Origin: Escherichia coli
Lineage (GTDB): Bacteria > Pseudomonadota > Gammaproteobacteria > Enterobacterales > Enterobacteriaceae
Strand: one strand, 5' to 3'
DNA: 64,000 nt
Assembly: GCF_051903065.1 (NCBI RefSeq)
Contig: NZ_CP178439.1
Shown here: positions 2,074 to 19,599 of the stretch, in pieces
Position numbering within the stretch: the stretch's first letter is position 1
How the letters are laid out: every line of letters begins with the position of its first letter
Program-made: the position numbers and the translations under genes
The notes under the pieces: model-generated
The model's database searches: none
Told to the model about the DNA's origin: nothing
Seen by the model: the letters and a program-made list of their open reading frames with translations, nothing else

Positions 2074-2937
2074 ATGATACCTAATAGCGAAAATAAAAGA
2101 GTATGGTTTATTACCGGAGCAAGCAAGGGGCTTGGCTATGCTTTTACATGCGCCGCCTTGAAAGCCGGGGATAAAGTTGTTGCAGTTGCAAGGACTATCG
2201 ATAATTTGGCGAAGCTAGAAGAAACATATCAAGAGAGCTTACTGCCATTAAACCTCGATGTTACAGATAGGGAGGCTGTTTTTTCTACGGTTGAAACAGC
2301 AGTTAAACATTTCGGTAGGCTTGATATTGTTGTTAATAATGCGGGTATCATGACTATGGGTATGATTGAAGAACTAAACGAATCCGATGCTCGGAAACTA
2401 ATGGACACAAACTTTTTTGGAGCTCTTTGGGTTTGTCAGGCAGTGATGCCCTATTTGAGGTCGCAGCGTTCTGGACATATCATACAGATTACAAGCATTG
2501 GCGCTATTATCTCGGGTCCGATGTCTGGTATTTACAGTGCAAGTAAATTTGCGCTGGAAGGAATGAGTGAAGCCTTAGCAAAAGAAGCGGAACATTTCGG
2601 AGTGAAACTCACTATGGTGGAACCAGGAGGATATTGGACAGATTTATACACTTCGATGAGTTACAGCAATCCATTAGATTCATACGGTACACTGCGCGAT
2701 GAGCTGGCGAAACAGTATTCCGAAGATTCGGTCGATAGTGATCCTTCCTTGGCAGCGGAAGCCCTTATGAAATTAGTAGCCAGCAATAATCCGCCTTTGA
2801 GGCTTATCCTTGGCAGCATGGTATACGATTTGGCGATGGATACCTTAAAAGCACGGATGGCTACCTGGGAAGAATGGGAAGCTGTTAGCCGTGCATCAGA
2901 AAAGGCTATTCCTGCACCGGAGAGATATGGAGTATAA
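2074..2937 (+). CDS. Short-chain dehydrogenase/reductase (SDR) family oxidoreductase
   Basis: TGASKGLG cofactor motif, NNAG, and YSASK catalytic motif in a 287-aa ORF. Confidence 0.75.
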   Translation: MIPNSENKRVWFITGASKGLGYAFTCAALKAGDKVVAVARTIDNLAKLEETYQESLLPLNLDVTDREAVFSTVETAVKHFGRLDIVVNNAGIMTMGMIEELNESDARKLMDTNFFGALWVCQAVMPYLRSQRSGHIIQITSIGAIISGPMSGIYSASKFALEGMSEALAKEAEHFGVKLTMVEPGGYWTDLYTSMSYSNPLDSYGTLRDELAKQYSEDSVDSDPSLAAEALMKLVASNNPPLRLILGSMVYDLAMDTLKARMATWEEWEAVSRASEKAIPAPERYGV

Positions 2938-2974
2938 TACCAAACATGGTTTTTGAGGCAAGGACGAAACTATC

Positions 2975-3220
2975 ATGAAAATTGAAATTATGGAATATAA
3001 CCCGGATTGGACAAAGAATTTTGAAGAAGAGAAAATAAAATTGCTCCATTTTTTCGGTTCTCATGCCGTAGCCATTGAACATATCGGAAGCACGGCGATA
3101 CCCAATCAACGGGCGAAACCGGTTATAGATATATTTATTGGCGTTTCGCCTTTTGCTGAACTACCTTTTATCAGCGCATTTTTAATGCAAAGGAGTATCA
3201 CCACACTCCGACAGATATGA
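2975..3220 (+). pseudogene. GrpB/UPF0157-like nucleotidyltransferase, N-terminal fragment
   Basis: 81-aa ORF with EHIGSTAIP...KPVIDI motif; about half the expected family length. Confidence 0.35.
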
Positions 3221-3688
3221 CAGGCAGATATTTGTTTGCAAAATATACAAATGAAGTTTGGACCCATAATCTTCTTGCTTTGGTGTAGGTATAATACCCA
3301 AAAACGAAGTTTATGCGGAACAGGATAACACCTCGAAATCGGAGTTTATATGGCTTCGTGGGGGAGTTATGTGTTTGAGCTTTGTCGCATTAACGCGAAT
3401 CAGGGGTTGACGGCAGAAATAGACTGGAATTACACTTCTTGGAGTCGGCGTTGCCGGAAAATTCTGATTGGATTAGTTGTTCGGGGTGCGAAAACAGTCG
3501 TAGTTCGGGGAAAAAACCGAATTTTGACCCAAAACCGCGAAAAACTCGAAATGACAGTTCCTATCAGTTTTCATAATGAATTAAAACAAAAAAATTAGGC
3601 TGCAAAGATAGGGAAAATGTGTCAATTTGCGTAAGTGATAATTAGTCAATTAAGATAAATGCTACTTTTGTAATCAAAGCAAAATGAT

Positions 3689-4480
3689 ATGAGCAAGATT
3701 TTTGGAATCGTAAATATAACCACCGATAGTTTTTCCGATGGAGGACTTTATTTAGATACAGATAAGGCAATTGAGCATGCTCTGCATTTGGTTGAAGATG
3801 GAGCAGATGTGATTGATTTGGGAGCCGCTTCCAGTAATCCTGATACAACTGAAGTGGGCGTTGTGGAAGAAATCAAAAGACTCAAACCTGTCATTAAGGC
3901 TTTAAAAGAAAAAGGCATTTCTATTTCTGTTGATACATTTAAACCTGAGGTTCAGAGTTTTTGCATAGAACAAAAGGTTGATTTTATTAATGATATTCAA
4001 GGTTTTCCTTATCCTGAGATTTATTCAGGCTTGGCAAAGTCAGATTGCAAACTTGTGTTGATGCACTCCGTTCAGCGAATTGGTGCAGCTACTAAAGTTG
4101 AAACGAATCCGGAAGAGGTTTTTACTTCCATGATGGAATTTTTTAAAGAAAGAATTGCTGCTTTAGTTGAGGCTGGTGTAAAGCGTGAACGAATTATTCT
4201 TGATCCGGGTATGGGCTTCTTTTTAGGCTCTAATCCAGAAACATCTATTCTTGTTTTGAAGCGTTTCCCTGAAATTCAAGAAGCTTTTAATTTGCAAGTA
4301 ATGATTGCAGTGTCACGGAAATCATTCTTAGGTAAAATAACTGGAACCGATGTGAAATCTCGTTTAGCACCAACTCTTGCAGCAGAAATGTATGCATACA
4401 AAAAAGGTGCAGATTATCTCCGCACCCATGATGTTAAGTCTTTATCAGATGCCTTGAAAATATCCAAAGCCCTAGGTTAG
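3689..4480 (+). CDS. sul3: Dihydropteroate synthase Sul3 (sulfonamide resistance)
   Basis: 263-aa ORF starting MSKIFGIVNITTDSFSDGG, recognised as Sul3; DHPS fold motifs. Confidence 0.9.
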   Translation: MSKIFGIVNITTDSFSDGGLYLDTDKAIEHALHLVEDGADVIDLGAASSNPDTTEVGVVEEIKRLKPVIKALKEKGISISVDTFKPEVQSFCIEQKVDFINDIQGFPYPEIYSGLAKSDCKLVLMHSVQRIGAATKVETNPEEVFTSMMEFFKERIAALVEAGVKRERIILDPGMGFFLGSNPETSILVLKRFPEIQEAFNLQVMIAVSRKSFLGKITGTDVKSRLAPTLAAEMYAYKKGADYLRTHDVKSLSDALKISKALG

Positions 4481-4701
4481 TTTTATTTTTTTAGCTTTCT
4501 AAATGAATATGCTATACTTGCTCTGAAGTTGTGTTGGCGTACTTGACTTAGGTCTGGATCTTTCGAACTGTTACTAAGAGGGTAATCATAGCCAAACATA
4601 AACTGGAAATGTCCTAATTCTAAACCTGTTCCAATACCTACACTATGGTGATGCTGCCAACTTACTGATTTAGTGTATGATGGTGTTTTTGAGGTGCTCC
4701 A

Positions 4702-4977
4702 GTGGCTTCTGTTTCTATCAGCTGTCCCTCCTGTTCAGCTACTGACGGGGTGGTGCGTAACGGCAAAAGCACCGCCGGACATCAGCGCTATCTCTGCTCT
4801 CACTGCCGTAAAACATGGCAACTGCAGTTCACTTACACCGCTTCTCAACCCGGTACGCACCAGAAAATCATTGATATGGCCATGAATGGCGTTGGATGCC
4901 GGGCAACCGCCCGCATTATGGGCGTTGGCCTCAACACGATTTTCCGCCATTTAAAAAACTCAGGCCGCAGTCGGTAA
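4702..4977 (+). CDS. insA: IS1 InsA
   Basis: 91-aa [43 protein letters not shown], zinc-finger InsA. Confidence 0.85.
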
Positions 4978-5399
4978 CCTCGCGCATACAGCCGGGCAGT
5001 GACGTCATCGTCTGCGCGGAAATGGACGAACAGTGGGGATACGTCGGGGCTAAATCGCGCCAGCGCTGGCTGTTTTACGCGTATGACAGGCTCCGGAAGA
5101 CGGTTGTTGCGCACGTATTCGGTGAACGCACTATGGCGACGCTGGGGCGTCTTATGAGCCTGCTGTCACCCTTTGACGTGGTGATATGGATGACGGATGG
5201 CTGGCCGCTGTATGAATCCCGCCTGAAGGGAAAGCTGCACGTAATCAGCAAGCGATATACGCAGCGAATTGAGCGGCATAACCTGAATCTGAGGCAGCAC
5301 CTGGCACGGCTGGGACGGAAGTCGCTGTCGTTCTCAAAATCGGTGGAGCTGCATGACAAAGTCATCGGGCATTATCTGAACATAAAACACTATCAATAA
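4896..5399 (+). CDS. insB: IS1 InsB reading frame (expressed as InsAB' by -1 frameshift)
   Basis: Overlapping downstream ORF inside IS1. Confidence 0.75.
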
Positions 5400-5442: not shown

Positions 5443-6108
5443 CTAACGACTACCACTTTTAAGTATGTATTGAGCCAGTTTTATATTCAGGCACACCATA
5501 TTGCACTCTAGCTCTTTCATCATTCTTGAAGAACTCTTAATTAAGTATTCTTCAAGTGGGCCAGCATATGCCCCTGATGTCACGATCGTTAGTTGCGTAA
5601 GAGGATGAGTCAAACTCTCAATGCCCTTCAGGATGTCATTCTGGACAGCAGCAATATAAACAGGCGAAGCCGCAATCAAATATTCATCATTCGGGCTGGA
5701 CTGCATTAACTGGCTTATAGTTGCGCAACGGTTATGCTTACCTAGTGATTTTGTGATGGCTTTCCACCAGAGATCATGCCTGAATGGTACTTGATGAAAT
5801 GTCGCCTCGTAAGAGGGCACCCGATCTCGACTATTTAAAAACCCCATCCCGGCAGAGATTATCCACAACTCCAGATTTCTGGTTGAGTTTAAAATTTCCT
5901 TTGCCGTAGACCAGTGATTACCTGAATACAAGGACAATGCCGGTACCGCCTGATTACTTCTGGCGTCGTCTACAATGTTACTCCAGGCATATGCTGCGTC
6001 GTCCGGGGTTTGTTTTGGATCTATGTCCAATGTCGGCCAGACGTGGCCCTGATGATTCTTGCCCTTTGTACAGGAAGTGATTAAGTGTACTGAGCGTTCA
6101 GAGAACAT
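5443..6108 (-). CDS. Hypothetical protein (221 aa)
   Basis: Six-frame ORF in AT-rich backbone; no family recognised. Confidence 0.5.
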   Translation of the reverse strand: MFSERSVHLITSCTKGKNHQGHVWPTLDIDPKQTPDDAAYAWSNIVDDARSNQAVPALSLYSGNHWSTAKEILNSTRNLELWIISAGMGFLNSRDRVPSYEATFHQVPFRHDLWWKAITKSLGKHNRCATISQLMQSSPNDEYLIAASPVYIAAVQNDILKGIESLTHPLTQLTIVTSGAYAGPLEEYLIKSSSRMMKELECNMVCLNIKLAQYILKSGSR

Positions 6109-6165
6109 TATCTTCCTTACATACCCATAGAACAGCTTTCTAAGAACGGTGGGCTCGCCTGAAAA

Positions 6166-6546
6166 TTACAAATCAGCCCCTTTCACGGCATCATTTTGAT
6201 TCTTCGCGTCTGCCCCCAGTAAGATGACCGGTTTTCTGCATGACAGTGTTATTCCTAACAAACGCAACACAAAACCACGCCAGCCAGAGCAAATTTTTTC
6301 ATTTGCTGCGTAAAGCCTATTGTTTTCTCTTTTAAGCTTCGCCCACTCGTTACAGAGGGTAACATCATCAAGCGCTGTTATATGCTTCGCCTCACCTTCG
6401 ACGATAACGGTATGGATACCGTATGCTGTAAATCTCATACTATTTTCCAGAACCCAGTTGCGGTATTCGTCGAGTCCACCTTCGGAACCGGTAGCTCTGC
6501 GCCACATTTCAATTTGCTTGTGTGATGGGTCAAGTGTACTTGTCAT
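6166..6546 (-). CDS. Hypothetical protein (126 aa)
   Basis: ORF upstream of and co-oriented with 5443..6108; divergent from the 7189 operon. Confidence 0.5.
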   Translation of the reverse strand: MTSTLDPSHKQIEMWRRATGSEGGLDEYRNWVLENSMRFTAYGIHTVIVEGEAKHITALDDVTLCNEWAKLKRENNRLYAANEKICSGWRGFVLRLLGITLSCRKPVILLGADAKNQNDAVKGADL

Positions 6547-6814
6547 TGAAGCCTCGTCTCAGCGATAACGCTTGAAATAGCCCGCTTTGGTCATCATGAA
6601 ATTAGCCATCTGACTGGCGATTTGATTGTATCTTACTCATAGTGCCCTACCTATAGGTTAAAAAGGGGCATTTTCGCTTTATAGCGTGTTCAGCAGCATC
6701 AATCCTCCCAAGAAAGGCTGGCTTATTAAGCCGGTCCATCATTTTCTGTATATCTCTCATCAATTTTTATATCCGCCCTGGAGTGCACCGTTCAAGCACA
6801 CCGATTAGGCAGAT

Positions 6815-6875
6815 AGTCACTAGTTAACTCTTTACTAGTGACTAAATTCCATTGATATACGTGACAACGTCACGT
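6815..6875. promoter_or_regulatory. Two perfect palindromes (AGTCACTAGT-N9-ACTAGTGACT and ACGTGAC-AAC-GTCACGT) in the divergent intergenic region
   Basis: Read directly at 6815..6843 and 6859..6875; a third palindrome AGTAAAG-C-CTTTACT lies at 7084..7098. Confidence 0.35.
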
Positions 6876-7188
6876 CATGAAAGCTTATAAATGCCTATTT
6901 TTCATACAATGGGATTTAATTAGGAGTAAATCCCATAGGCTTACATAAGGATGACAATTAAAAGCGTTAAATATCAACCAGATAGAATGATTACCCCCAA
7001 TTAATGGGCTCATCACATTATTTCACTGGCTGGGGTTATTGCTGGCATATCTGAAAGTGCTAATATGTTAGTCATTAGTAATTAGTAAAGCCTTTACTAA
7101 ACGCGTTTCTACGTAAATTCTATAGGTTTTATAGTGTCCTACCTTTGCTCAAATCAAAATGTTCTGACATACCAAAATGGAGTGTAAA

Positions 7189-8007
7189 ATGACTCAAAAC
7201 CAGGGTTCTGAGCCAGTACCGGCGAGCCGGACAGGGCAGCTCATCAGCGCCCGGGATATGGCCATGCAGAAATTCGAAGAAGGGATGCGGTTAATCTCGG
7301 AAGCGTCGGAACTGTGCGGTCTCTCTCTCTTCACCAGCAGAATTATGCAGCCCAACGCATTTGGTCTTCCGTCGTCACTGGATCGCACCATCGAGGAGGG
7401 GCGTAAGGAAATTGACCGTAAAACGTGGAAAAGGCTCTTTGAAGAAACAGGTATGGACCGGTACTGGAACCATAAGCAAAAAGAAGCCTTTAACGAATCC
7501 CTTCGTACGGATCCGCCCGTCGCTTCCCTGGAGATTGTTAAGGGAACATTACAGCATGCACTGGCTAACAGACGAGACACCCTTGCAGAAGGTTTCGTTG
7601 ATGTTCTCAACAAGCTTGACCGAAGTTTCAAAAGCAATGCCAGGCAATATACAATGCCAAAAAAGCTTGTTCTTCGGGGGATTTTTCCTGGTGTGAACGT
7701 GCTGAGGTACAACGGTTTCTCGCAGGACAATCACTTTTGTTTACGCGACTTTGAGAATATTGTATGCATCTGTTCTGATACTCCAACACCTGCAACCGGC
7801 GGTGGGCTGAGTATGGTCGACAGGCTGACGGCCATGAGAAATACAGAATTCACAGGCGAGGTCAGTGATGAGAATGGCTGGCGGTGTCGCCTGTTTGAGA
7901 ATGGAAACGTTCATATTTGCATCGACAGTATCTCGCTTCTGAATGCTCTGAACGATCTTATCAGCATATATTTTGCAAACCAGCTTCCGGCCGCAGGAAA
8001 AAAATGA
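7189..8007 (+). CDS. Hypothetical protein (about 272 aa)
   Basis: ORF 7177..8007; ATG at 7189 has GGAG 6 nt upstream; stop overlaps next start (ATGA at 8004..8007). Confidence 0.55.
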   Translation: MTQNQGSEPVPASRTGQLISARDMAMQKFEEGMRLISEASELCGLSLFTSRIMQPNAFGLPSSLDRTIEEGRKEIDRKTWKRLFEETGMDRYWNHKQKEAFNESLRTDPPVASLEIVKGTLQHALANRRDTLAEGFVDVLNKLDRSFKSNARQYTMPKKLVLRGIFPGVNVLRYNGFSQDNHFCLRDFENIVCICSDTPTPATGGGLSMVDRLTAMRNTEFTGEVSDENGWRCRLFENGNVHICIDSISLLNALNDLISIYFANQLPAAGKK

Positions 8008-9209
8008 TGATTGAAAATGATAAAGAAAAAAGCCTGAACGATGCTACCCCGCCAGAGGTGCAGAATGACATCCGCAGCGAATCCACTGAAAAATCAAAGG
8101 AAATGGGTCGTTCAAGGTACTCATCTATCGCGATGATCGATTACTTCAATGCAATCGAACGTCTGTGCAAAGAGAAAGAAATTAACCCGGAAAATATCGA
8201 TCTGAGCTTCAAAGTTCACTGGCTCAGAAACGCTGTTGGCGGCTCGTTTGCAAGGTCACAGGAGATGTTCGCGGAGTACCAGAAGTATGTTAAAGAGGTT
8301 CCTGAAGAGGCCCGTTACCTGGATATACCCGATGAGGTAAAGGTTGCACTCGGCGATATTATCTCGTACATCACCTGGCACTACCGTAGAAGCTATACCG
8401 CAATACAGAATGATAGTGTTAAAAAAGCTGAAGCACGTAGCATGCAGCTGGAGGAGGAGGTAACGCAGCTGTTACAGCGGCTTGAGCAAAGCGCTACCGA
8501 TATGGATGAGCTGAAACTTGAGAATCAGGCACTACAGGGTCGATTAGAGATCCGGGACAGTACCGTCAAGGAGTTAGAAACAAGGCTGAATGTTGCCGAA
8601 GCAGAACTCGAAACCTGCCATCACCAGTTAGATAGCACACGGCATGAATTGAGCCTCGCACAGCAGTCAAATGACTCACTCTCCCAGCAACTGGCTGAAC
8701 GTAAAACAGAGATCGCTGGTCACCTTGAATATCAAAAAAAGCTGAACGAAGAGATCAACACGCAGCGTTCTGATAACGCCGGTCTTTCCAGACAATGCGA
8801 CCAGTTAAGTCAGACTGTGTCAGATACAAAGGCAGAGAGGGACAGGTTTGAACAGGAATTGATTGCTGCACAGAACCTTTGTACTGAGCTGAAAAGTGCA
8901 CTGTCCGGGAAAGAGGGTGACCTGGTGGCGGTGAATGCCGAGCTTACTGAACTCCATAAACTAAACGAGTCGCTGAGCGCCGACCTGAATAAAGTAACTT
9001 TGGTCAGCCAGGGCTATGAAGCGGAAGTGGCTGAACAAAGCAATGAACTCAAAACGCTCCAGGCCAAAGTAATGAAGCTGGAAGCTACCCTGGAGGCGGA
9101 GAAAACAATCTCAGAATCCCTAAAAGGCACCATTGATACATTAACTGGTGCAATGGCAGGGGGAGGTACTGGAAAGTCAAAACAGCCGCGTAGCAGAAAA
9201 ACATCATGA
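8004..9209 (+). CDS. Coiled-coil protein (401 aa), KfrA-like architecture
   Basis: Globular N-terminus then ~300 aa of heptad-like E/Q/L-rich sequence; translationally coupled to upstream gene. Confidence 0.55.
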   Translation: MMIENDKEKSLNDATPPEVQNDIRSESTEKSKEMGRSRYSSIAMIDYFNAIERLCKEKEINPENIDLSFKVHWLRNAVGGSFARSQEMFAEYQKYVKEVPEEARYLDIPDEVKVALGDIISYITWHYRRSYTAIQNDSVKKAEARSMQLEEEVTQLLQRLEQSATDMDELKLENQALQGRLEIRDSTVKELETRLNVAEAELETCHHQLDSTRHELSLAQQSNDSLSQQLAERKTEIAGHLEYQKKLNEEINTQRSDNAGLSRQCDQLSQTVSDTKAERDRFEQELIAAQNLCTELKSALSGKEGDLVAVNAELTELHKLNESLSADLNKVTLVSQGYEAEVAEQSNELKTLQAKVMKLEATLEAEKTISESLKGTIDTLTGAMAGGGTGKSKQPRSRKTS

Positions 9210-9272
9210 TAAATGAAGCCAGGTTGATACACTTCTCTGCATCCCCTGGCACATAAGAACTTCTGCGGACAT

Positions 9273-9476
9273 TCAGCCCGTCCGCAGGAGTTTTCGTCCT
9301 TCAGTCAACAAATGCACTACCTTTTTTGAGTCTCCACTTTCCAGAGCAGAAAACACGTTACCGATTCTACCAACAGCTTGTATCTGAGTGATAACCCCAG
9401 TCTTGTAATCATCTAGGATCCCTGACAGGAAAGCGTTCAGTTTTGTCTGTTCGCTTAGCGAAAGCATGTAGGACAT
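9273..9476 (-). CDS. Small hypothetical protein (67 aa)
   Basis: ORF immediately downstream of 9489..10808 on the same strand. Confidence 0.3.
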   Translation of the reverse strand: MSYMLSLSEQTKLNAFLSGILDDYKTGVITQIQAVGRIGNVFSALESGDSKKVVHLLTEGRKLLRTG

Positions 9477-9488
9477 TTTTTCTCCATT

Positions 9489-10808
9489 TTAAGCAGGTGT
9501 GTCAGTTGAAAGAGGTTTGCGTGATTCTGGAAAATGAGGCAGCACCATAGTTTCAGATGCTGTGGTCGCATCCCAGTGCCACCATCCATAAGGCCCATAT
9601 TCACGGTTGTAATAATCTTTTTTGAGTTGCTTTCGGGCCAGATAAGCAGGAGTGGCCATACCAAATACTTCCATCGGGAACGGCTTATCGCTTTTTGTGT
9701 CGAGCAGGTAGAAGTCAGGGAACACCTCACTAATACTCGCATCATAACGCATGGGCTTAACGTACTGCCGGTGCTCTGCATCCAGCTTTTCTGCAACAAC
9801 CGCCTCATAGGAGGAGTCCAGAGGTATCCAGTTCTCGCTAACGTGCATCAGCACAATTTGATGAGCTCTTACAGAAGGGCCTCTGCCGGTTACCGCAGCT
9901 GGTGACGTCAACGCAAAGACAACTATTTTCGCCCCGGATTTCCATGCTGCGTACTCCGATGAAAATCGTTTCTTTACGCTATCCCAATGGACTTCTGAAT
10001 TGAAAAAAATCAGCGGTAGCCCCCCAAAATTCCGCAGGGGTAAAAATTTAAGTGGCTTCTCATGCTTTTCAGCATCGTAGCGAGGTAAAACTGACAGGAG
10101 CATGAGACGTTTATCACTCATCGCCTGTGATGAAAGACGCTGAATTTGCGACTGAGCGACAGGTTGTTTCGGGTCAGGTACACCAATGAATAAATGGTCA
10201 CCTATGCAGGCTCTGCCGGTACGAATTTGTTTAGCGGTTTCAAGCAGACGATACCGTACCAGTGAATCGTTACGTTTCCCTGCCATTTTCGGGTACCAGA
10301 CATTCAGACCAGACTCTGTCCACAAAAGACTAAGCAAGCCCAGGAGGGTCATTGAGGCCTGACCTCCTTCTGGTCGCTGAACATGGGGCAGGGGAGGCAC
10401 TTCTGATTTTTCAGGAGGATCTTTCTCTGTCATACCGATACCGAGCCTTACAGCCATATCACCTTCGGTTGTAATCCGGACCACACCACTCGCATATCCT
10501 TTCAGGCCGGTATGCCGGGCATCAAGGGAGAAGAATACACAGGAAGGATCATGCTCAATGCCCGTGTTAGCGGCTTTGACGAGAATAAAGGCATCACCGT
10601 TCGGTAAAGCACGAACATAAAGTCGCTTTTCTCCTTTTCCACGACATCCGCAGGTGATGACTGATTTTTGACCTGAGGTGTGGTGTGCCTTTTTAAGAGC
10701 CGACTGCCACCCTTTAGCAAACTCATCCTGCGTTTGAAAGTCAGGTGAATACCTTTTGACGTTTGGATCGTCGTCGTAAGCAATCATCACTGCGAATTTT
10801 TGGCTCAT
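9489..10808 (-). CDS. Hypothetical protein (439 aa), conserved-plasmid-protein appearance
   Basis: Long ORF with AGGAGA RBS 6 nt upstream; co-oriented downstream of the Dcm-like gene. Confidence 0.6.
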   Translation of the reverse strand: MSQKFAVMIAYDDDPNVKRYSPDFQTQDEFAKGWQSALKKAHHTSGQKSVITCGCRGKGEKRLYVRALPNGDAFILVKAANTGIEHDPSCVFFSLDARHTGLKGYASGVVRITTEGDMAVRLGIGMTEKDPPEKSEVPPLPHVQRPEGGQASMTLLGLLSLLWTESGLNVWYPKMAGKRNDSLVRYRLLETAKQIRTGRACIGDHLFIGVPDPKQPVAQSQIQRLSSQAMSDKRLMLLSVLPRYDAEKHEKPLKFLPLRNFGGLPLIFFNSEVHWDSVKKRFSSEYAAWKSGAKIVVFALTSPAAVTGRGPSVRAHQIVLMHVSENWIPLDSSYEAVVAEKLDAEHRQYVKPMRYDASISEVFPDFYLLDTKSDKPFPMEVFGMATPAYLARKQLKKDYYNREYGPYGWWHWDATTASETMVLPHFPESRKPLSTDTPA

Positions 10809-10830
10809 AGTAGTCTCCTAAACAGGAAGT

Positions 10831-10998
10831 TTAATATCCCAACCAGAGCAACACTTCCTGAGCGTCATACTGTTCCTTTACGCCCATGTCGCTAAAGAAT
10901 TCTTCGAAATCTGTTTCGGGAACGCAATGCCTGGACAGTTCTTGTAATGCTCGTTCTTTAGATACCGTCTCACCTTCAGCTGATTCGAAATACGTCAT
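10831..10998 (-). CDS. Small acidic protein (55 aa, MTYFESAEGETVSKERALQELSRHCVPETDFEEFFSDMGVKEQYDAQEVLLWLGY)
   Basis: Hand-translated ORF below the 60-aa track cutoff, between the Dcm-like gene and the 439-aa gene; GAGG upstream. Confidence 0.35.
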   Translation of the reverse strand: MTYFESAEGETVSKERALQELSRHCVPETDFEEFFSDMGVKEQYDAQEVLLWLGY

Positions 10999-11058
10999 GG
11001 TTGACCTCTGACATTATTACAACAATCTTAAGCATTTAAATTGATGAAGGAGCTCAGG

Positions 11059-12528
11059 TCAGCTGACTTCGTCGTAAAACTGCCGCAAGCGCTGGGAGGC
11101 TGCAAATTCAATTCGTGACTTCAGCAGTTTGGCGACGGCCGCAAAGACATCAACGACCACGGAGTTCCCAAACTGTCTGTAAGCCTGTGTATTGGACACA
11201 GGGATACGGAAAACACTTTCCCCGGGTTTATCGAAGCCCATTAGCCTGCTGCATTCACGTGGCGTTAGCATGCGTGGCCGACGGTCCATGTTGTATGTGT
11301 TATGGAAATCAGTTTCTCCCAGTTCATGAGACCAGCCCCGATCAATAAGAATTTCAGATCCGTCTTTCATATAGCGGCTTGAGAGGGTTCTGGTGACACT
11401 ATTAACATTGGAAGGATCTACTAGTCCAAAACCAAAACCATTGCCTTTTGCCGCATGTTTCTTTGCATAGTTGTATAAGTACTCCCAGAGTTTAGGGGAG
11501 AGGATGTATTTACTATCTACGCTCGGATCCAGTAAATCTGAGAGAGAAGGGCGCTTGTCCGGATAAAAGTCTTTAATGTCTCTCAGAGTAAAACCGTCTT
11601 TCAGACGTAGGTCGCGGCGAAAACCAATAAGGACGATACGTTCACGGTGCTGGGGTCGGAAATGACGGCCATCGATGACTTTAGGATCATCCGCGCCCGT
11701 GCTTTCGCTGTTTGCGACGTCGTAGCCAAGCTCATCGAGCGTTTTCATGATGATGTTAAAGGTATTACCCTTATCGTGACTCTTCAGATTTTTTACGTTT
11801 TCCAGAACAAAAATTGCAGGTTGTTTTGCCCGGATGATCCTGGCCACATCAAAGAAGAGCGTACCCTGAGTGTCGCACTCGAAACCGTGTTTGCGACCCA
11901 TAGAGTTCTTTTTACTGACACCGGCGATGCTGAATGGCTGGCATGGAAATCCCGCAAGAAGAACATCATGATCCGGGATAGAGGCATCGATAAATTTGTA
12001 TGCCTCGTCATCAGTAACCTCGGGCCGGTTGCTAAGAGTGATGTCACGGATGTCTGAATTGAAGCGGTGCTCGTTCTCATCGCAATACCAGTTCGCCCGG
12101 TAAGTACGGCTGGAATAAGTATTCCATTCGCTCGTGAAAAGACATTTACCACCGATGGCATCAAATCCGCTTCGCAGTCCACCTATCCCTGCAAACAGAT
12201 CGATAAAGCTAAAGTGCCTGTCCTCATAATCAGCAGGTCGTGAAGGTATTAAAGTCTGTAGATAGCGTCCATCTGCGATACTCAGCTCACAATGCTCAGG
12301 TATGCATGTAACCTGACGTTTAAGGGATGCACGGGACCAATTACTGCCATTTTCATCATTTAATACCTGAGCCAGATATTTCAGGTCATAAATGGTCGAA
12401 GCTGTTAACAAAGTTTTGTGGATCAGAGATGGTGTTTTATCCACATCATTCAGGTCTGTCTCAAGATCATGAGTGTAACGTTTCATCCAAACTCTCTCAG
12501 GAATAATATCTTTGAGATAGATTAACAC
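11059..12528 (-). CDS. dcm: DNA cytosine-5 methyltransferase, Dcm-like
   Basis: Motif [16 protein letters not shown], motif [13 protein letters not shown] motif, QFGNSV; near-collinear with E. coli Dcm / M.EcoRII as recalled; no vsr downstream. Confidence 0.85.
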
Positions 12529-12697
12529 GCTTAATTTGGATTATTTTTTGGTTCAGGTTCTAAATTTATTGTGATTATTCTGCCTTTAAGTTGCAAAAAG
12601 ATTGGTTTTAAGCCCGCCCATGAAATAATGACTTGTTAAAATACTGCCTGTAAATAGGCTTGTGGATACATGTCTGTACTCAACAAATCAAGGTGAA

Positions 12698-13216
12698 ATG
12701 ATGTTTTTTTTAACAAAGTTACTTTTGCCCATCATGATTGTTGTATTCCCAGTGGCGTCCTGGGGGAACTCAACAACTTTTGAGGCAAAGGTGGTTAAGA
12801 TTGTTGACGGTGACACCATAACTGCGTTGGATGCTCAAAACACAACCATCAAAATACGGATGTATGGTATAGACGCTCCTGAATCTAAACAGGCTTTTGG
12901 CCAAAAAGCAAAACAGGCCTTAACCACAGCTATAGCAACTAAAATCGTTACCGTGATAGACCATGGTACGGATATCTATGGCCGTATGTTAGGTACCATC
13001 TGGTTAGATGGATATGATATCAATGCCTCTATGGTGGACAGTGGATATGCGTGGGTTTATCGGTTCGAAGATAACGCCATTGTCCCTGGCTATATCAAAT
13101 ATGAATCCGCAGCACAAAAGGAGGCAAAAGGGTTATGGGCAGACACCAACCCTGTCCCACCATGGCAGTGGAGACAGGCAAACGAAAAGCCCAGAAAGGT
13201 GAAAGAGAAGAAATAA
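12698..13216 (+). CDS. nuc: Secreted thermonuclease (SNase/Nuc family)
   Basis: N-terminal signal-like hydrophobic segment, GIDAPE motif typical of staphylococcal-nuclease fold. Confidence 0.7.
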   Translation: MMFFLTKLLLPIMIVVFPVASWGNSTTFEAKVVKIVDGDTITALDAQNTTIKIRMYGIDAPESKQAFGQKAKQALTTAIATKIVTVIDHGTDIYGRMLGTIWLDGYDINASMVDSGYAWVYRFEDNAIVPGYIKYESAAQKEAKGLWADTNPVPPWQWRQANEKPRKVKEKK

Positions 13217-13218
13217 CC

Positions 13219-14115
13219 ATGATGAAAGAGCCTCATCCGTTACTTCAGTTGGTACTAAACGATTCCGGTCGTCTAACCATGCCTGTTTATTATAGAGATC
13301 AACAGTATTGCCCGACTTGCCTTACAAAGGTGTTGAAGAGTGAGGATGGAAGTTTGGCGCACCTCGGGGAAATAAATCAAAATACATGTAGACCTTCTAT
13401 TTCAGTAGTTGTGACAAAAGCAATTATTGAAATGTTATGTGACGGGGAAAAAATATATGTAAATCCAATACGACACCGAGGCCGGGTGCTGGCACCCTCA
13501 GTAATTTTTTCTCCCGACACTCACACTTTCAAACCGTTTATAAATACAGACTATCAGCCTGTGGGAGCAAACTGGAAAAGTGAAAAGGGATATAAACTCG
13601 GTCTGTTTTATCTCAAAGATCGAGCCAACTCTATCAATAAAGAGGAATTTGATTTCATTGCCGTTATAGACCCTGAGGCAATGCAGAAAGAATTTATTTC
13701 GGCCTGGTCTGAGGTTGATGAAAAAAATCCATTGGAAACGCTGAAGCAGATCTTACGATCTAAAAACAACTCTTCTTTATGGGTAAAATGGCCTGGCAAA
13801 ATTGAGCATGCGCAAAAAGGAAATTACAACGAAAATTACTGGTTCGATTATCAATCTGATAATCAGGAAGTGAACTGTACGGTCTCTGTTGTAGGTATCG
13901 AAGGTAACAGTTCCGGTGAGACAATTTATAGATTGCAAACTTTGCTAAAGCGTAAGCTCAATGAATATCAACTGGTTCGGTCTTTAGGGACTATTATGCT
14001 TCTTGATAATACCGGGAATATGATTCCATCAAACCATCCTTATTTTGAAGTCATCTCAAAAGCATGTATAAATGGAGTGCGTGACTTTGTTCGTCAAAAC
14101 CCGTGGGTAGTCTGA
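13219..14115 (+). CDS. Hypothetical protein (298 aa)
   Basis: ATG 2 nt after nuc stop; ORF 13135..14115 frame. Confidence 0.5.
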   Translation: MMKEPHPLLQLVLNDSGRLTMPVYYRDQQYCPTCLTKVLKSEDGSLAHLGEINQNTCRPSISVVVTKAIIEMLCDGEKIYVNPIRHRGRVLAPSVIFSPDTHTFKPFINTDYQPVGANWKSEKGYKLGLFYLKDRANSINKEEFDFIAVIDPEAMQKEFISAWSEVDEKNPLETLKQILRSKNNSSLWVKWPGKIEHAQKGNYNENYWFDYQSDNQEVNCTVSVVGIEGNSSGETIYRLQTLLKRKLNEYQLVRSLGTIMLLDNTGNMIPSNHPYFEVISKACINGVRDFVRQNPWVV

Positions 14116-14162
14116 CGGTCAACTATAAAGCATAATATAATTAGTAATAACAAGGAACAGAC

Positions 14163-14570
14163 ATGAATGAAAACTCAGTAATCTTAATAAGTTTATTTTG
14201 GTTTTTTTTGGGATCGAGTGTTGTAGCTGGTTTTATGGATGCATCATTATATTGCTGGATTTTTGCAGCCATAAGCGCATTGTTTCTTCTTTCGGTGATA
14301 CAAACACCAAAGGAGTTAACGGTATCTATTAGTCATATGACAAGCAAAACGCTGATCTCAAAGACAGATGATGGATACACATTTAGCATTTCACCTTACG
14401 GAGACGGGTACCGCTTATCAGTCTCGCCTGAAAATCGTCACAATGGTACCCAAAGCTTTGACGGCTGGTTCCCACGTTTTTTTTCCGAACCACAGTATGC
14501 CAAATCATCTTTAACTAAATTTCTCGGTGAGTCCTTAGTATGGGAAGAAGATTCAAGTAATGCTCTATGA
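14163..14570 (+). CDS. Hypothetical membrane protein (135 aa)
   Basis: ORF with two N-terminal hydrophobic segments. Confidence 0.45.
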   Translation: MNENSVILISLFWFFLGSSVVAGFMDASLYCWIFAAISALFLLSVIQTPKELTVSISHMTSKTLISKTDDGYTFSISPYGDGYRLSVSPENRHNGTQSFDGWFPRFFSEPQYAKSSLTKFLGESLVWEEDSSNAL

Positions 14571-14615
14571 GATTACTTATTATAAATTTTTCTATTAATC
14601 TCCATGGAGTGATAT

Positions 14616-14870
14616 ATGAATTTGGCCTATTTTTTATTTTTGTCTATAACTGTTATGCTTACGAGCTTTATTATTAAATCACTTGTCGTATTGGTAAAGT
14701 TCAAATTACTTCGTGATGAACGTCTCGAATATACCAGCAATAAAAATATTGATGAGATGTACGATTTAATGAATGCGAAGGAAGAAATCCTCATAAGGCA
14801 TCATAAGCAGATGTTGGCATTGCATCTTTCACTATTAATATTCGTTCTATTTATTGCTTACATTTACTAA
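14616..14870 (+). CDS. Small membrane protein (84 aa)
   Basis: ORF with N- and C-terminal hydrophobic helices. Confidence 0.4.
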   Translation: MNLAYFLFLSITVMLTSFIIKSLVVLVKFKLLRDERLEYTSNKNIDEMYDLMNAKEEILIRHHKQMLALHLSLLIFVLFIAYIY

Positions 14871-14907
14871 AAATAATTTTATTCAACATTTCAACAAAGG
14901 GTTTTCA

Positions 14908-15195
14908 ATGGAAAGCTTCGAAACTGAACAAATGATTCAATATGCTTTCTACATAAATATCGTAATAACGACTGGTTTGGCATGGTTTTGCTTGCGGTCA
15001 GGATTGCATTACAATTTTTTCAGAAAAGCAGAGAGTGCCAGAACAAAAGGGCTGAGTAGTACCTCTACTGAACACGGTCCAGCAATAGTGAGACTAAAGA
15101 AGCTACAAGCATTAGTAGATTTTATTAGTAACTGTGCTTTTCTAATCCTTTCAATTGGCACAGCTTATATTTTGTATGTTTGGAGCCACAGTTAA
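14908..15195 (+). CDS. Small membrane protein (95 aa)
   Basis: ORF 14854..15195, internal ATG at 14908 with purine-rich upstream. Confidence 0.4.
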   Translation: MESFETEQMIQYAFYINIVITTGLAWFCLRSGLHYNFFRKAESARTKGLSSTSTEHGPAIVRLKKLQALVDFISNCAFLILSIGTAYILYVWSHS

Positions 15196-15231
15196 CTCAT
15201 ACGAGGTAACTTCGGCAGGTAACAACTTCTA

Positions 15232-15462
15232 ATGCAGGACTTTAATAACTCTAAGGGATTCTACATGAAAAAAGACGATCTAATTACGCGTTGTAAATTA
15301 CTTAAAGGCGAACGCGATGAGTCTATCTTTACCATATTAATTGGGATAGTAGTAAAGCTGGGGCTGGTAGGCCTGGCATTCTATCTGTTGCTTGGTTCCA
15401 CGATTGATTGGTCAAGCTGGAAAACTTATGCCGCCATGTTGATCTTGGGAGCATTTCTCTAA
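15232..15462 (+). CDS. Small membrane protein (76 aa)
   Basis: ORF with C-terminal hydrophobic helix. Confidence 0.4.
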   Translation: MQDFNNSKGFYMKKDDLITRCKLLKGERDESIFTILIGIVVKLGLVGLAFYLLLGSTIDWSSWKTYAAMLILGAFL

Positions 15463-15574
15463 AATCTTGAACCTTTTTTCACTCATTACAAGCCATGACC
15501 TAGTGCGTAGATCATACGATCTTTAAACCTTATGTCATTGATTTATAAGTACATATAACAAAGATTATGTTAAA

Positions 15575-15594
15575 TACTGTATGTATGTACAGCA
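15575..15594. promoter_or_regulatory. LexA (SOS) box-like site TACTGTATGTATGTACAGCA
   Basis: CTGT-N8-ACAG consensus read directly, about 200 bp upstream of gene 15799. Confidence 0.5.
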
Positions 15595-15798
15595 TCAACA
15601 GTTGCCCCCCTCATATTGAGGTAATTGCTACATTCATACCACTATTCTTCTTATAGTATCGACATCCTGAATTATTGCACCCTACTGCTTTGTCTTTAGC
15701 TGTTCCGAATTAAAATTCATTGCTCAATTTGGATCACATGACGATCAGCGTATTCCTTTGCTTTATCAAAGTTAAGTTTTTAAAACATAAGATATGTA

Positions 15799-16260
15799 AT
15801 GACAAATTCTCAATCTGATTTTCCTTTGAACGATCAAAATTTTCAGGCAGATTTGCTGAAAATCAAAAAGGTTTTCGCCGACCTTATAACGCAGGCATCA
15901 GATGGTAAGATACCCATAAGGTCTTCTCATGTACACGGCTTACACCATTTCGAGGAGCTCTACATCCGGGCAAGAGCAGGCATGTGTTCGGTCCTGGGAT
16001 ATCCGGTCATGGTTGTTTCAACTATCTCAGTTAAAGAGCCCGGCACAGGCATTTTTAGAGCGCTTCTTGCAGAATTGAAATGTATTGCAGATGAACAAAA
16101 TTACATTTTGAAAATTGAAAATGTACTGCCTCCCCTATTCCGCAAATACCTTATTCAAGAAGGTTTTGTTTTCCCAGGTGAACCTTGGATGTGTGGTTCC
16201 GGCTATTGGTTTAAGAACCCACAAGTACTTCATGAAAATATTGAGTTATTATCTGTTTAA
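15799..16260 (+). CDS. Hypothetical protein (153 aa)
   Basis: ORF downstream of the LexA-like box. Confidence 0.5.
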   Translation: MTNSQSDFPLNDQNFQADLLKIKKVFADLITQASDGKIPIRSSHVHGLHHFEELYIRARAGMCSVLGYPVMVVSTISVKEPGTGIFRALLAELKCIADEQNYILKIENVLPPLFRKYLIQEGFVFPGEPWMCGSGYWFKNPQVLHENIELLSV

Positions 16261-16289
16261 GTCGATCTAACAATTTCACTGGAGCTAAC

Positions 16290-16697
16290 ATGTCCCCGGA
16301 ATTGGTATCAGACATTGCAAGAGTGGCGCATGAAAAGCTACTTTCAATTTTAACGGAGTGCGGCATAGAGAAGACGGCAGGCACTTGCCTTTTTGCAAGC
16401 TATCTTGTGTGTTATTTAGCAAAAACTAAAGGTCTAGATGCTGTTGTCCGTGGGGGTAACGGTGCAGATGATGGCGGTATATTTATAGAGTGTGGTGGCT
16501 TTGGCCATTATTGGTGTGAGTTGAATTTCGAAGAAGTGCAATATTATATTGACATCACTTCCGAACAGTTTGGGTTTCATCCATACATAGTGAAACTCGC
16601 CAACGATATAACAGGATGGCCTCGATATATTCCTGGTGATCAGGAAACGGTCGATAGTCATTTAGAACAATTATTACGCGACGGCTATACAGAATAG
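16290..16697 (+). CDS. Hypothetical protein (135 aa)
   Basis: ORF 29 nt after the previous gene, probably co-transcribed. Confidence 0.5.
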   Translation: MSPELVSDIARVAHEKLLSILTECGIEKTAGTCLFASYLVCYLAKTKGLDAVVRGGNGADDGGIFIECGGFGHYWCELNFEEVQYYIDITSEQFGFHPYIVKLANDITGWPRYIPGDQETVDSHLEQLLRDGYTE

Positions 16698-16747
16698 GCT
16701 GCGTATACCCTATCGCAGCCTTTCAGGCTCTTAACCCTTGTGACCTG

Positions 16748-17275
16748 TTAACGGAACCACTCAGGATGACGCTGCCGATCAACTTTGATAACCTGCGAAT
16801 TAAATTCAACGACATCCGCTGGAGTAAGCATTAATTCATCAGGATTTACAATAAATGGTCTTAAAACCACTTCGCCACCGTCTTCTTTTGCACCGTAGAT
16901 ATTAATAAGAAAGTGCAGTCGTTGATTTCCTTCAGCATTGCGTTGCCATTCTCTAAAAGTCAAAGTTTGTTTAATATAGTTTGTTAAAAGAAATGCGAAT
17001 TCAGATTCTTCCGTTTGTGAGATACCGATTTTGTTAGACATTTTTTTTAGTATCTTTCCGAGCATGGACACACAGGCATCTAGACTTAACGATGTTGAAA
17101 TTTTGGTCGTATTAAAATCCTCCTGCGAAAGTGAAATCATCCATGTATTATCTTTATGATAGTCGGTAATATAAATAAAATGAGATGTAAAAGGCGTTGA
17201 GTGATTGAACTCTCCTAAGTTCCATCCATACTGACTCACTGTATTTGAGCTAAGTTCTTTGTCGGTAATGTTCAT
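16748..17275 (-). CDS. Hypothetical protein (175 aa)
   Basis: ORF, AT-rich. Confidence 0.5.
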   Translation of the reverse strand: MNITDKELSSNTVSQYGWNLGEFNHSTPFTSHFIYITDYHKDNTWMISLSQEDFNTTKISTSLSLDACVSMLGKILKKMSNKIGISQTEESEFAFLLTNYIKQTLTFREWQRNAEGNQRLHFLINIYGAKEDGGEVVLRPFIVNPDELMLTPADVVEFNSQVIKVDRQRHPEWFR

Positions 17276-17441
17276 AATTCATACCTTTCGATAAAGTCTG
17301 TAATGATAATTAGCTATCTCAAAGGACCAGAACAACTCTTGAAATAACCACACTCGAAGAATTTATCATATTGAACACCCCTACCTAATAACCTTGCCGA
17401 CTTAATAAATCACAATAGCCCTCCCCTGACATTTTAAAATG

Positions 17442-17828
17442 CTACTTGAATTTTTGATAGCTTATGGTTGTTTTATGTTCTTTGTGATACGCATATGTCA
17501 TCTTCTCTTTCCAGTACCAATCTTGTAGATCCTGCAAGTCTAGCCCATTTTTCTCACGTATGCTTTCGTGTAATTCGCTAAGCGCGAGTTTATCATTAGG
17601 TTTATAAATGGCTAATTTTTCTTCAAATAAATCCAGCCAACGTTTCCCCATCTTACGACGCAAAACAAACACCATCGTGATAAATGTAATGAAATGCACA
17701 GCAATTAGTTCCAACTTATGCGATTGCTGACCAGATAAAATTACTATTGTAACAACAGGGATGGCCGTATATAAAGCAATCAAAGCGACCATAAGTTGGT
17801 ATGGTTTTTCCCGTATTACCATGTTCAT
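17442..17828 (-). CDS. Hypothetical membrane protein (128 aa)
   Basis: ORF with two predicted TM helices. Confidence 0.45.
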   Translation of the reverse strand: MNMVIREKPYQLMVALIALYTAIPVVTIVILSGQQSHKLELIAVHFITFITMVFVLRRKMGKRWLDLFEEKLAIYKPNDKLALSELHESIREKNGLDLQDLQDWYWKEKMTYAYHKEHKTTISYQKFK

Positions 17829-17878
17829 GGGTAAACCAGAGGACGCTACTGCTTGCCAAAATCTTAAAGGGGAGCCCG

Positions 17879-18779
17879 CAGAATTCGGAAAAAATCGTAC
17901 GCTAAGGTTTTCCGGGCATCCGTAAGGGCCGAAACTTCCCGTCTTCCAGTCTGCGGCTCTGCCGCCAGACGTAATCGCCGGTTAGGTTGATGTGCTCCCA
18001 GCCCAGCGGCGACAGGAATTGCAGCAGCTCGCCGTCCACCGGCTTGCCGGCCTCGACCAACCCCTGGGTGGCGCGTTCCAGGTACACCGTGTTCCACAGC
18101 ACGATAGCCGCCGTCACCAGGTTGAGGCCGCTGGCCCGGTAGCGCTGCTGCTCGAAGCTCCGATCCCTGATTTCCCCAAGGCGGTTGAAGAACACCGCCC
18201 TGGCCAGCGAGTTGCGCGCCTCACCTTTGTTCAGGCCGGCATGCACGCGGCGGCGCAGTTCAACACTTTGCAGCCAGTCCAGGATGAACAGCGTGCGCTC
18301 GATCCGGCCCAGCTCGCGCAGGGCCACGGCCAGTCCGTTCTGGCGCGGGTAGCTGCCGAGCTTGCGCAGCATCAGCGAGGCGGTGACGGTGCCCTGCTTG
18401 ATCGAGCTGGCCAGGCGCAGGATGTCGTCCCAGTGGGCACGCACGTGCTTGATGTTCAGGGTGCCGCCGATCAGCGGGCGCAACGTCGGGTAGGCTTGCA
18501 CGCCCTGCGGCACGTACAGCTTGGTTTCGCCGAGGTCGCGGATGCGCGGCGCGAAGCGGAAGCCTAGCAGGTGCATCAGGGCAAAGACGTGATCGGTGAA
18601 GCCGGCCGTGTCGGTGTAGTGCTCCTCGATCCGCAGGTCGGACTCGTGGTACAGCAGGCCGTCGAGCACATAGGTGGAATCGCGGACGCCGACATTCACC
18701 ACGCGGGTGCTGAACGGCGCGTACTGGTCGGAGATATGGGTATAGAACAGCCGTCCCGGCTCGCTACCGTACTTCGGGT
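17879..18779 (-). mobile_element. tnpA: Tn1721/Tn501-type transposon end: 38-bp IR (17879..17916) plus 3' part of tnpA (pseudogene), truncated by IS26
   Basis: IR GGGGAGCCCGCAGAATTCGGAAAAAATCGTACGCTAAG; Tn3-family TnpA C-terminus ([12 protein letters not shown]...[32 protein letters not shown]) ends at the IS26 junction. Confidence 0.85.
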
Positions 18780-19599
18780 GGCACTGTTGCAAATAGTCGG
18801 TGGTGATAAACTTATCATCCCCTTTTGCTGATGGAGCTGCACATGAACCCATTCAAAGGCCGGCATTTTCAGCGTGACATCATTCTGTGGGCCGTACGCT
18901 GGTACTGCAAATACGGCATCAGTTACCGTGAGCTGCAGGAGATGCTGGCTGAACGCGGAGTGAATGTCGATCACTCCACGATTTACCGCTGGGTTCAGCG
19001 TTATGCGCCTGAAATGGAAAAACGGCTGCGCTGGTACTGGCGTAACCCTTCCGATCTTTGCCCGTGGCACATGGATGAAACCTACGTGAAGGTCAATGGC
19101 CGCTGGGCGTATCTGTACCGGGCCGTCGACAGCCGGGGCCGCACTGTCGATTTTTATCTCTCCTCCCGTCGTAACAGCAAAGCTGCATACCGGTTTCTGG
19201 GTAAAATCCTCAACAACGTGAAGAAGTGGCAGATCCCGCGATTCATCAACACGGATAAAGCGCCCGCCTATGGTCGCGCGCTTGCTCTGCTCAAACGCGA
19301 AGGCCGGTGCCCGTCTGACGTTGAACACCGACAGATTAAGTACCGGAACAACGTGATTGAATGCGATCATGGCAAACTGAAACGGATAATCAACGCCACG
19401 CTGGGATTTAAATCCATGAAGACGGCTTACGCCACCATCAAAGGTATTGAGGTGATGCGTGCACTACGCAAAGGCCAGGCCTCAGCATTTTATTATGGTG
19501 ATCCCCTGGGCGAAATGCGCCTGGTAAGCAGAGTTTTTGAAATGTAAGGCCTTTGAATAAGACAAAAGGCTGCCTCATCGCTAACTTTGCAACAGTGCC
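18780..19599 (+). mobile_element. tnpA: IS26 copy 2, transposase CDS 18843..19547, Asn at residue 184 (KRIINATLG)
   Basis: Both 14-bp IRs present; GGC to AAC codon change relative to copy 1; flanks do not match. Confidence 0.95.

Follow-up and report, generated by a model that had tools for sequence, protein, structure and literature searches.

A staphylococcal-type nuclease gene and its fixed 298-residue neighbour in the IncHI plasmid backbone: an accessory pair possibly associated with transfer

The Nuc proteins of the IncN plasmid pKM101 and of the IncI1 plasmids ColIb-P9 and R64 are periplasmic, non-essential and co-regulated with transfer genes; they belong to the phospholipase-D superfamily and are encoded inside the tra regions. 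Another plasmid protein, ParB of the RP4/RK2 parCBA multimer-resolution operon, is a nuclease resembling staphylococcal nuclease (SNase), and we take it to be the source of the "parB" label given to gene R0153 of the IncHI1 plasmid R27. The subject of this report is a gene of the SNase family, nuc, together with the gene directly 3′ of it, orf298, in a stretch of 64,000 nucleotides from Escherichia coli (RefSeq assembly GCF_051903065.1, contig NZ_CP178439.1), referred to here as the window. Like the Nuc proteins of pKM101 and the IncI1 plasmids, the nuc product is plasmid-borne, predicted to be exported, non-essential and, going by data for R27, expressed under transfer-promoting conditions; the enzyme families differ, however, and those proteins have no orf298-like partner. 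Like RP4 ParB, it is a plasmid-borne SNase homologue, but its neighbours are a methylase and orf298 rather than the resolvase ParA and ParC. Other plasmid SNases also lack an orf298 partner, whereas nuc is here fixed in a two-gene unit. With the SNase of Staphylococcus aureus, the nuc product has in common a full-length domain and the catalytic and Ca-binding Asp/Arg/Asp/Glu/Arg residues, at an identity of about 30% or less; its N-terminus resembles an export signal, and the predicted mature form is small and basic.

In our reading the locus is a backbone operon of conjugative IncHI-type (MOBH/MPF_F) plasmids, accessory and associated with transfer, that encodes an exported nuclease and a cytoplasmic partner; we put the probability of this reading at about one half. 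An earlier note, made from the window's sequence, had described a secreted thermonuclease gene, a gene for a 298-residue protein starting 2 nt beyond it and four genes for small membrane proteins, and had suggested that they form one envelope-associated plasmid operon. The features concerned are as follows.

12529-12697: AT-rich intergenic region of 169 bp between the divergent nuc and methylase genes
12698-13216, plus strand: nuc, SNase-family open reading frame (ORF), 172 aa
13219-14115, plus strand: orf298, 298 aa, uncharacterised family
14163-14570, plus strand: chimeric ORF, 135 aa
14616-14870, plus strand: s84, 84 aa
14908-15195, plus strand: s96, 95 aa
15232-15462, plus strand: s76, hydrophobic, 76 aa (65 aa if the start is at 15265)

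The layout is as the note had it: the nuc TAA occupies 13214-13216, the orf298 ATG follows 2 nt further on at 13219, four more ORFs lie on the same strand, and the region is indeed plasmid DNA, namely IncHI2 backbone. The intergenic gaps from nuc to s76 are, in order, 2, 47, 45, 37 and 36 nt. A single operon would fit this arrangement, since the gaps are short and no convincing terminator was found from nuc through 15462. The 12529-12697 region presumably holds the promoters of both nuc and the methylase gene; a promoter search of it returned consensus-level matches only, not above those in shuffled sequences.

The identification of nuc as an SNase gene stands. Its product matches Pfam PF00565 over the whole profile (positions 1-107 of 107; 85.6 bits, E 3.9e-24, cut-off 21), and alignment to the S. 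aureus thermonuclease (PDB 4j1m) shows that the DGDT motif, the arginine of "IKIRMYG", "IDAPE" (D-x-x-E) and "YGR" are kept. The catalytic and Ca2+-ligand residues Asp21, Arg35, Asp40, Glu43 and Arg87 of the S. aureus enzyme are all matched; the Thr41 position is alanine, and this residue presumably contributes its ligand through the backbone carbonyl. Against the NCBIfam equivalogs EcnA and NucI, the product does not reach the cut-off. The RefSeq start is the second ATG, at 12701, and AAGGTG lies 4 nt 5′ of the nuc ATG. A signal-peptide-like segment covers approximately residues 1-22 (KD19 hydropathy 2.27 over residues 1-19) and is followed by a small-residue motif, VAS/SWG here and of the AxA type in relatives. 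Moreover, all eight nuc orthologues compared have K/KK n-regions and AxA-like motifs by hydropathy and motif inspection. Export of the product to the envelope is thus plausible, and both this location and nuclease activity are predicted from the sequence. The gene is under purifying selection, with a ratio of non-synonymous to synonymous substitution (dN/dS) of 0.13-0.16. In pRWS292.s2, an IS3-family element at 12696-12699 cuts nuc off from the 12529-12697 region.

The second gene, orf298, is a different matter. No match to its product was found in Pfam, NCBIfam, PADLOC, PHROGs or the PDB sequences, even by family profile, and it has no hydrophobic or transmembrane segment and no signal peptide. 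The envelope-associated operon of the earlier note therefore holds in part: the spacing is operon-like and nuc export is plausible, given signal-like N-termini in all eight lineages, but orf298 bears no mark of the envelope. The family is small, with 34 clusters in a set of 5.8 billion proteins and 25 representatives in one of 1.84 billion; it occurs at one locus among 100,044 species genomes and is nearly confined to MOBH plasmids. Purifying selection acts on the gene (dN/dS 0.19-0.24), with a dN two to three times faster than that of nuc. The N-terminus carries a CxxC...H...C zinc-ribbon-like motif, a pattern in common with the N-terminal zinc ribbon of CoiA, and distant relatives give sub-threshold matches to CoiA_N-like models (CoiA_N PF25164, DUF7828, DUF7830) at residues ~9-60. 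A CoiA-like protein was nonetheless rejected as an identification, since these matches are sub-threshold and restricted to distant members and there is no match to PF06054. Across the superfamily just 7-9 columns never vary; these include P93, W119, G124, W188, E234, L261 and C283, as well as S121 and G128 in a smaller alignment; E234 is the sole invariant charged residue, K123 and D263 being nearly so. With so few invariant polar residues for a typical active site, the protein is probably non-enzymatic. It is predicted to be a soluble cytoplasmic zinc-ribbon protein without a recognised fold, and it founds a small plasmid-restricted family; what is new here is this family and the constancy of its pairing with a gene for an exported nuclease.

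Distant homologues of orf298 show other surroundings. Those at L020 5773-6798 and L027 3368-4402 (L numbers denote the comparison loci) have ~25% identity, a "PD" dipeptide at the invariant P93 and a clearer CoiA_N-like N-terminus; genes of this type have, in Klebsiella MOBH plasmids, parAB on one side and a pair of large Ig-like (RSP-type) genes on the other. Another distant homologue sits directly after an H-NS gene, without an SNase gene, in MOBH plasmids.

Contigs with orf298 homologues were compared in eight lineages, where orf298 identity is 100, 81, 73, 52, 45, 37, 20 and 22%. In all eight, the orf298 homologue is directly preceded, at a distance of -8 to +17 nt, by an SNase gene whose product has a signal-peptide-like N-terminus, and the two genes frequently overlap as ATGA. 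The junction is never rearranged, although the region 3′ of orf298 is heavily rearranged, and the coupling has outlasted protein divergence of over 50% and the saturation of synonymous sites. Identity rankings of nuc, orf298 and dcm are concordant across loci. Each gene can also be found without an intact partner. In pS1-9 an IS1203 copy, flanked by a target duplication, breaks orf298 at codon ~72 and leaves nuc 100% intact, and two further records show the identical two-piece pattern. At least 5000 PLSDB plasmids carry an SNase homologue, in most cases with no orf298, as beside HU in IncC and beside DUF1173 and H-NS in Klebsiella IncHI1B. Because orf298 can be disrupted by an insertion sequence (IS) while nuc stays intact, because each gene is found alone, and because an R27 deletion that removes both (deletion 13, below) is viable and stable, orf298 is not an essential immunity protein.

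The pair belongs to a larger conserved block. The 3-kb stretch around it is present in 1141 PLSDB plasmids, with identity reaching 99% or more in 670; the carriers are mostly conjugative, 210-310 kb in size, from Escherichia, Salmonella and Enterobacter, and of IncHI2A / MOBH / MPF_F type. Apart from nuc, every gene of this stretch is annotated as hypothetical. Window positions 7135-18779 are identical to pSTM6-275. On the other side of the intergenic region the block continues as follows.

11059-12528, minus strand: C5 cytosine methyltransferase of the Dcm/EcoRII type, transcribed away from nuc (475 aa, 11059-12486, with the RefSeq start)
10831-10998, minus strand: 55-aa ORF, co-oriented with the methylase gene, a block member
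9489-10808, minus strand: DUF1173 protein (PF06666, 134.8 bits)
8004-9209, plus strand: 401-aa coiled-coil protein
7177-8007, plus strand: DUF4942 (Pfam match)
within 5443-9209: 126-aa ORF, left block part, between DUF6884 and DUF4942
5443-6108, minus strand: DUF6884 (Pfam match), left block part

The methylase matches PF00145 (253.7 bits) and NCBIfam PRK10458 (845.7 bits), and its best PADLOC match is an orphan methyltransferase. A Dcm-type methylase gene is divergent from nuc in seven of the eight lineages, and a methylase fragment lies nearby in the eighth. In one lineage, at L011 5787-7214, the methylase is in three ORFs and likely a pseudogene, while nuc and orf298 are intact. The 55-aa ORF and DUF1173 are syntenic in every block-bearing locus, and the order of the left part (DUF6884, 126-aa ORF, DUF4942, coiled coil) is kept in L003, L008, L010, L011 and pHCM1. 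Synteny of DUF1173, and of the pair formed by DUF4942 and the 401-aa coiled-coil gene, is as strict as that of nuc and orf298. DUF1173, the slowest-evolving block gene (dN/dS 0.06-0.07), was predicted to combine a zinc motif with a PD-(D/E)XK-like fold in which the active site is missing (PMC3045609). The lineage at 52% identity is IncHI1 (R27, pHCM1), and the block also occurs in chromosomal islands of Enterobacteriaceae. Since the IncHI2 block is common to IncHI1 R27, the nuc-orf298-methylase block is ancestral IncHI backbone.

This relationship brings published R27 data to bear on the locus. The R27 orthologues are R0152 (orf298), R0153 (SNase, "parB"), R0154 (EcoRII-like methylase) and R0156 (DUF1173). 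R0153 (L029 2903-3418; NC_002305.1 140402-140917) had been annotated parB by similarity (PMC4853401); the label "parB/partition protein" is a mis-annotation of an SNase orthologue with predicted export, and it carries into the interpretation in the R27 transcriptome papers. A ParB-type role in partition or multimer resolution was rejected for nuc: no resolvase or ParC gene is adjacent, and R27 deletion 13 is stable. This deletion (138,432-144,479; R0150-R0157) was obtained in a series in which only deletion 16 lowered stability (PMC4853401), and the block is thus dispensable in the laboratory. In R27 arrays, expression at 25 C was higher than at 37 C by 2.9x for R0153, 4.7x for R0154 and 1.9x for R0152, which moves in parallel with R0153, and R0153, as a "partition gene", was among the few non-tra genes induced in all conjugation-promoting conditions (PMC7366339). 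In the htdA mutant (drR27) at 25 C the whole block was up 4-16x, with near-identical values for R0152 (16.3x) and R0153 (15.6x) (PMC7366339). A trio of "hypothetical / nuclease / cytosine methylase" belongs to the 122-gene IncHI1 core genome, and each of its products has been found by mass spectrometry (PMC5390554 supplement); by gene order, the "hypothetical" is the orf298 homologue. From the R27 microarrays, a loose tie to DNA transfer is a reasonable one; of the roles that the earlier note put forward as possible, none (DNA uptake, exclusion or turnover of biofilm eDNA) is specifically supported by the results.

As a transfer-associated accessory operon, the locus might work as follows. The nuc product would be a Ca2+-dependent enzyme of the staphylococcal type with a Sec signal peptide, and would degrade DNA and RNA non-specifically outside the cytoplasm, whether periplasmic or released. 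The orf298 product, translationally coupled to nuc, would be soluble and cytoplasmic, with a zinc ribbon at its N-terminus; having very few conserved polar residues, it most likely serves in binding or scaffolding (of nucleic acid or protein) rather than as an enzyme, and it is no essential nuclease inhibitor. The pair is inherited as a unit with the divergent Dcm-type methylase and DUF1173, and in R27 the genes of the block are turned on with the transfer genes at low temperature. In cells competent for transfer, the exported nuclease could then remove free DNA from within the envelope or from its surroundings, and the methylase could pre-methylate the plasmid DNA. In this sense we infer a role of nuc and orf298 in conjugation. 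A more demanding version, unlikely in our estimate, would make nuc-orf298 with Dcm and DUF1173 a dedicated conjugation-coupled MOBH module with orf298 as a true functional partner; orf298 could in that case be an establishment or anti-defence factor, or couple the cytoplasmic state of the DNA to nuclease export or activity.

Several observations weigh against a transfer-associated operon. The htdA effect is global, with 139 of 181 expressed genes up (PMC7366339), and is to that extent weak evidence of a specific transfer link, and the temperature response of R0152 (1.9x) is below the 2-fold threshold of the same study (PMC7366339). The signal-peptide call for nuc consists of hydropathy plus inspection of the cleavage motif. 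Proteins like orf298 occur without SNase, after parAB or H-NS, and most of the SNase plasmids do without orf298, so the pairing may come from shared ancestry of the backbone region rather than from joint function. Furthermore, the mature SNase and orf298 would be in separate compartments, and direct interaction would not explain the conserved coupling.

A further possibility, which we regard as doubtful but worth keeping in view, is that the two genes are neighbours only. Here orf298 would belong to the IncHI/MOBH backbone in its own right (acting, for instance, in the nucleoid or in partition), the SNase would be an unrelated accessory kept adjacent by common descent of a low-recombination backbone segment, and the small ORFs would be decaying cargo. 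The SNase-free homologues after parAB and before the Ig-like RSP-type genes, or after H-NS, would suit such a protein, as would the SNase genes beside H-NS or HU in other MOBH plasmids, the near-restriction of the family to these plasmids (the one locus among 100,044 species genomes) and the dispensability of the whole block in R27. Mere neighbours, however, would hardly be expected to keep overlapping or nearly overlapping stop and start codons while their proteins diverged by over 50% and synonymous sites became saturated, or a junction that is never rearranged next to a heavily rearranged 3′ region, or nearly identical fold changes of R0152 and R0153 in drR27.

Tight coupling and co-inheritance in eight lineages could instead be those of a nuclease-immunity pair, with orf298 as a cytoplasmic inhibitor of the SNase precursor before export, much as barstar neutralises barnase and NuiA neutralises NucA. 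A cytoplasmic orf298 beside an exported nuclease would be in the right place, and its dN of two to three times that of nuc is something that interface-driven partners can show. This explanation is nevertheless highly improbable: the IS1203-split orf298 sits beside a fully intact nuc in pS1-9, with the pattern repeated in two more records; at least 5000 SNase plasmids are mostly without orf298 (IncC beside HU, Klebsiella IncHI1B beside H-NS), and orf298 homologues are also found with no SNase gene; an inhibitor of 298 aa would be a large one; and SNase, which requires Ca2+ at millimolar levels, should be inactive in the cytoplasm. On strict co-occurrence a toxin-antitoxin-like pair was rejected, orf298 being split with nuc intact and each gene occurring alone as well. 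Very little credence can be given to a module of the restriction-modification or defence kind, in which orf298, DUF1173 or both would be a divergent nuclease or specificity subunit acting with the Dcm-type methylase. Such a module would account for the adjacent methylase in nearly all lineages, for some chromosomal copies that adjoin Thoeris genes, for a weak PADLOC PDC-S68 match of DUF1173 and for a "P-[SD]...S-x-K" pattern in orf298 that vaguely recalls PD-(D/E)XK. Even so, orf298 matched no nuclease family in Pfam, PADLOC or a PDB profile search, catalytic-site acidic residues are not conserved in it, the methylase scores best as an orphan, and an hhalign comparison of orf298 with DUF1173 gave 0.4% probability. 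At L011 the methylase is in three pieces with orf298 intact, a weaker point in that host Dcm could mask the loss. Membership of a type II restriction-modification system was rejected, since orf298 has no recognisable nuclease fold or motif and the L011 methylase is broken beside an intact orf298. Among the defence-system models of PADLOC-DB 2.0, only generic SNc and methyltransferase models matched; orf298 and the small ORFs matched none. All three of these alternatives are less likely than the transfer-associated accessory operon.

The small ORFs 3′ of orf298 stand apart from the conserved core. The 135-aa ORF is a fusion through a ~1.1-kb deletion relative to L008: its residues 1-56 (14163-14330) form a two-helix hairpin that matches the 5′ part of a gene for a 96-aa three-helix membrane protein of L008, and residues 59-135 (14337-14570) are a complete conserved soluble 77-aa gene, orf77. 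In L008 the counterparts of the two halves are separate genes (8952-9119 and 10235-10468), ~1.1 kb apart, and the junction lies 6 nt 5′ of the orf77 ATG at a TAAC(A/G)GT microhomology. Standing alone, orf77 follows the orf298 homologue directly in L003 (IncHI1-type) and L007, at 56-62% identity. The s84 product has predicted transmembrane helices at both ends (KD19 2.24 and 2.37) and is 94% identical in L008 (dN/dS 0.23); an 86-aa protein 3′ of the orf298 homologue in L010 has an s84-like architecture and the KNID.YDL motif in common. The s96 product is hydrophobic at both ends, its N-terminal segment being under the hydropathy cut-off here and over it in the 98-aa L008 homologue; the mechanical ORF begins at a TTG, 14854, and homologues at 54% (L008) and 35% (L003) identity occupy another position in the array (dN/dS 0.17-0.27). 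The 84- and 95-aa ORFs are thus constrained (dN/dS 0.17-0.27), and their order varies between lineages. It is doubtful that s76 is a constrained gene: its dN/dS is 0.92 (3.5 synonymous versus 11.5 non-synonymous changes, 15 substitutions), and in other plasmids it has been hit by IS1 (15269-15277), IS3 (15353-15355), IS10 (15365-15373) and IS903B (15377-15385), all four with proper target duplications. Of the four small membrane proteins proposed in the earlier note, then, the two-helix 84- and 95-aa products hold up, while the 135-aa chimera with its soluble part and the IS-hit 76-aa ORF do not.

Synonymous divergence in the tail leaps from 0.07 to 2.0 between adjacent genes, which points to recombination, and the tail differs or is absent in L010, L011, L013, L015 and R27. 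The small ORFs are accordingly a recombining, partly decayed mosaic outside the conserved core, and not fixed members of the unit. In R27 the place of the IncHI2 tail after the orf298 homologue is taken by R0151 (L029 1139-1918), a 259-aa cytoplasmic phospholipase-D-like (PLDc_2) protein, which is regulated by temperature in the direction opposite to R0153 (-2.1x at 25 C) (PMC7366339). In L002, L005 and L006 (~10240-11690), where an IncHI1-type block lies in a chromosome or large contig, Thoeris genes (ThsB TIR, ThsA Macro) are found ~0.4 kb 3′ of the tail.

Elsewhere in the window there are nine copies of an 820-bp IS of IS26 size, of which six full copies and a partial one are oriented alike and the remaining two are reversed (849-1668, 18780-19599, 25590-26409, 29956-30775, 33026-33845, 35026-35845, 39111-39411 (partial), 46031-46851 and 53318-54140). 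They divide the window into backbone and resistance segments, and the nuc-bearing backbone segment ends at the copy starting at 18780. Between the first copy and DUF6884, positions 2074-5399 hold a short-chain dehydrogenase gene, a low-GC gene for a pterin-binding dihydropteroate synthase (sul3-like) and an IS1 transposase gene, and are not collinear with pSTM6-275.

In Salmonella, E. coli and Enterobacter, multidrug, mcr and metal resistance have major vehicles in the plasmids of the IncHI1 and IncHI2 groups, whose backbones consist to roughly two thirds of genes without known function. Within that backbone, the nuc-orf298 block is old, evolves under constraint, and is expressed and regulated together with transfer. 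The locus is real, widespread, accessory and mostly ordinary, and does not amount to a new kind of system. Should the nuclease and its partner have no effect on transfer, they would be one more dispensable accessory nuclease. If, on the other hand, either of them does affect low-temperature transfer or establishment, it would offer a target for limiting IncHI spread, and if a conjugation-coupled module is at work, orf298 would represent a new protein family acting in plasmid transfer.

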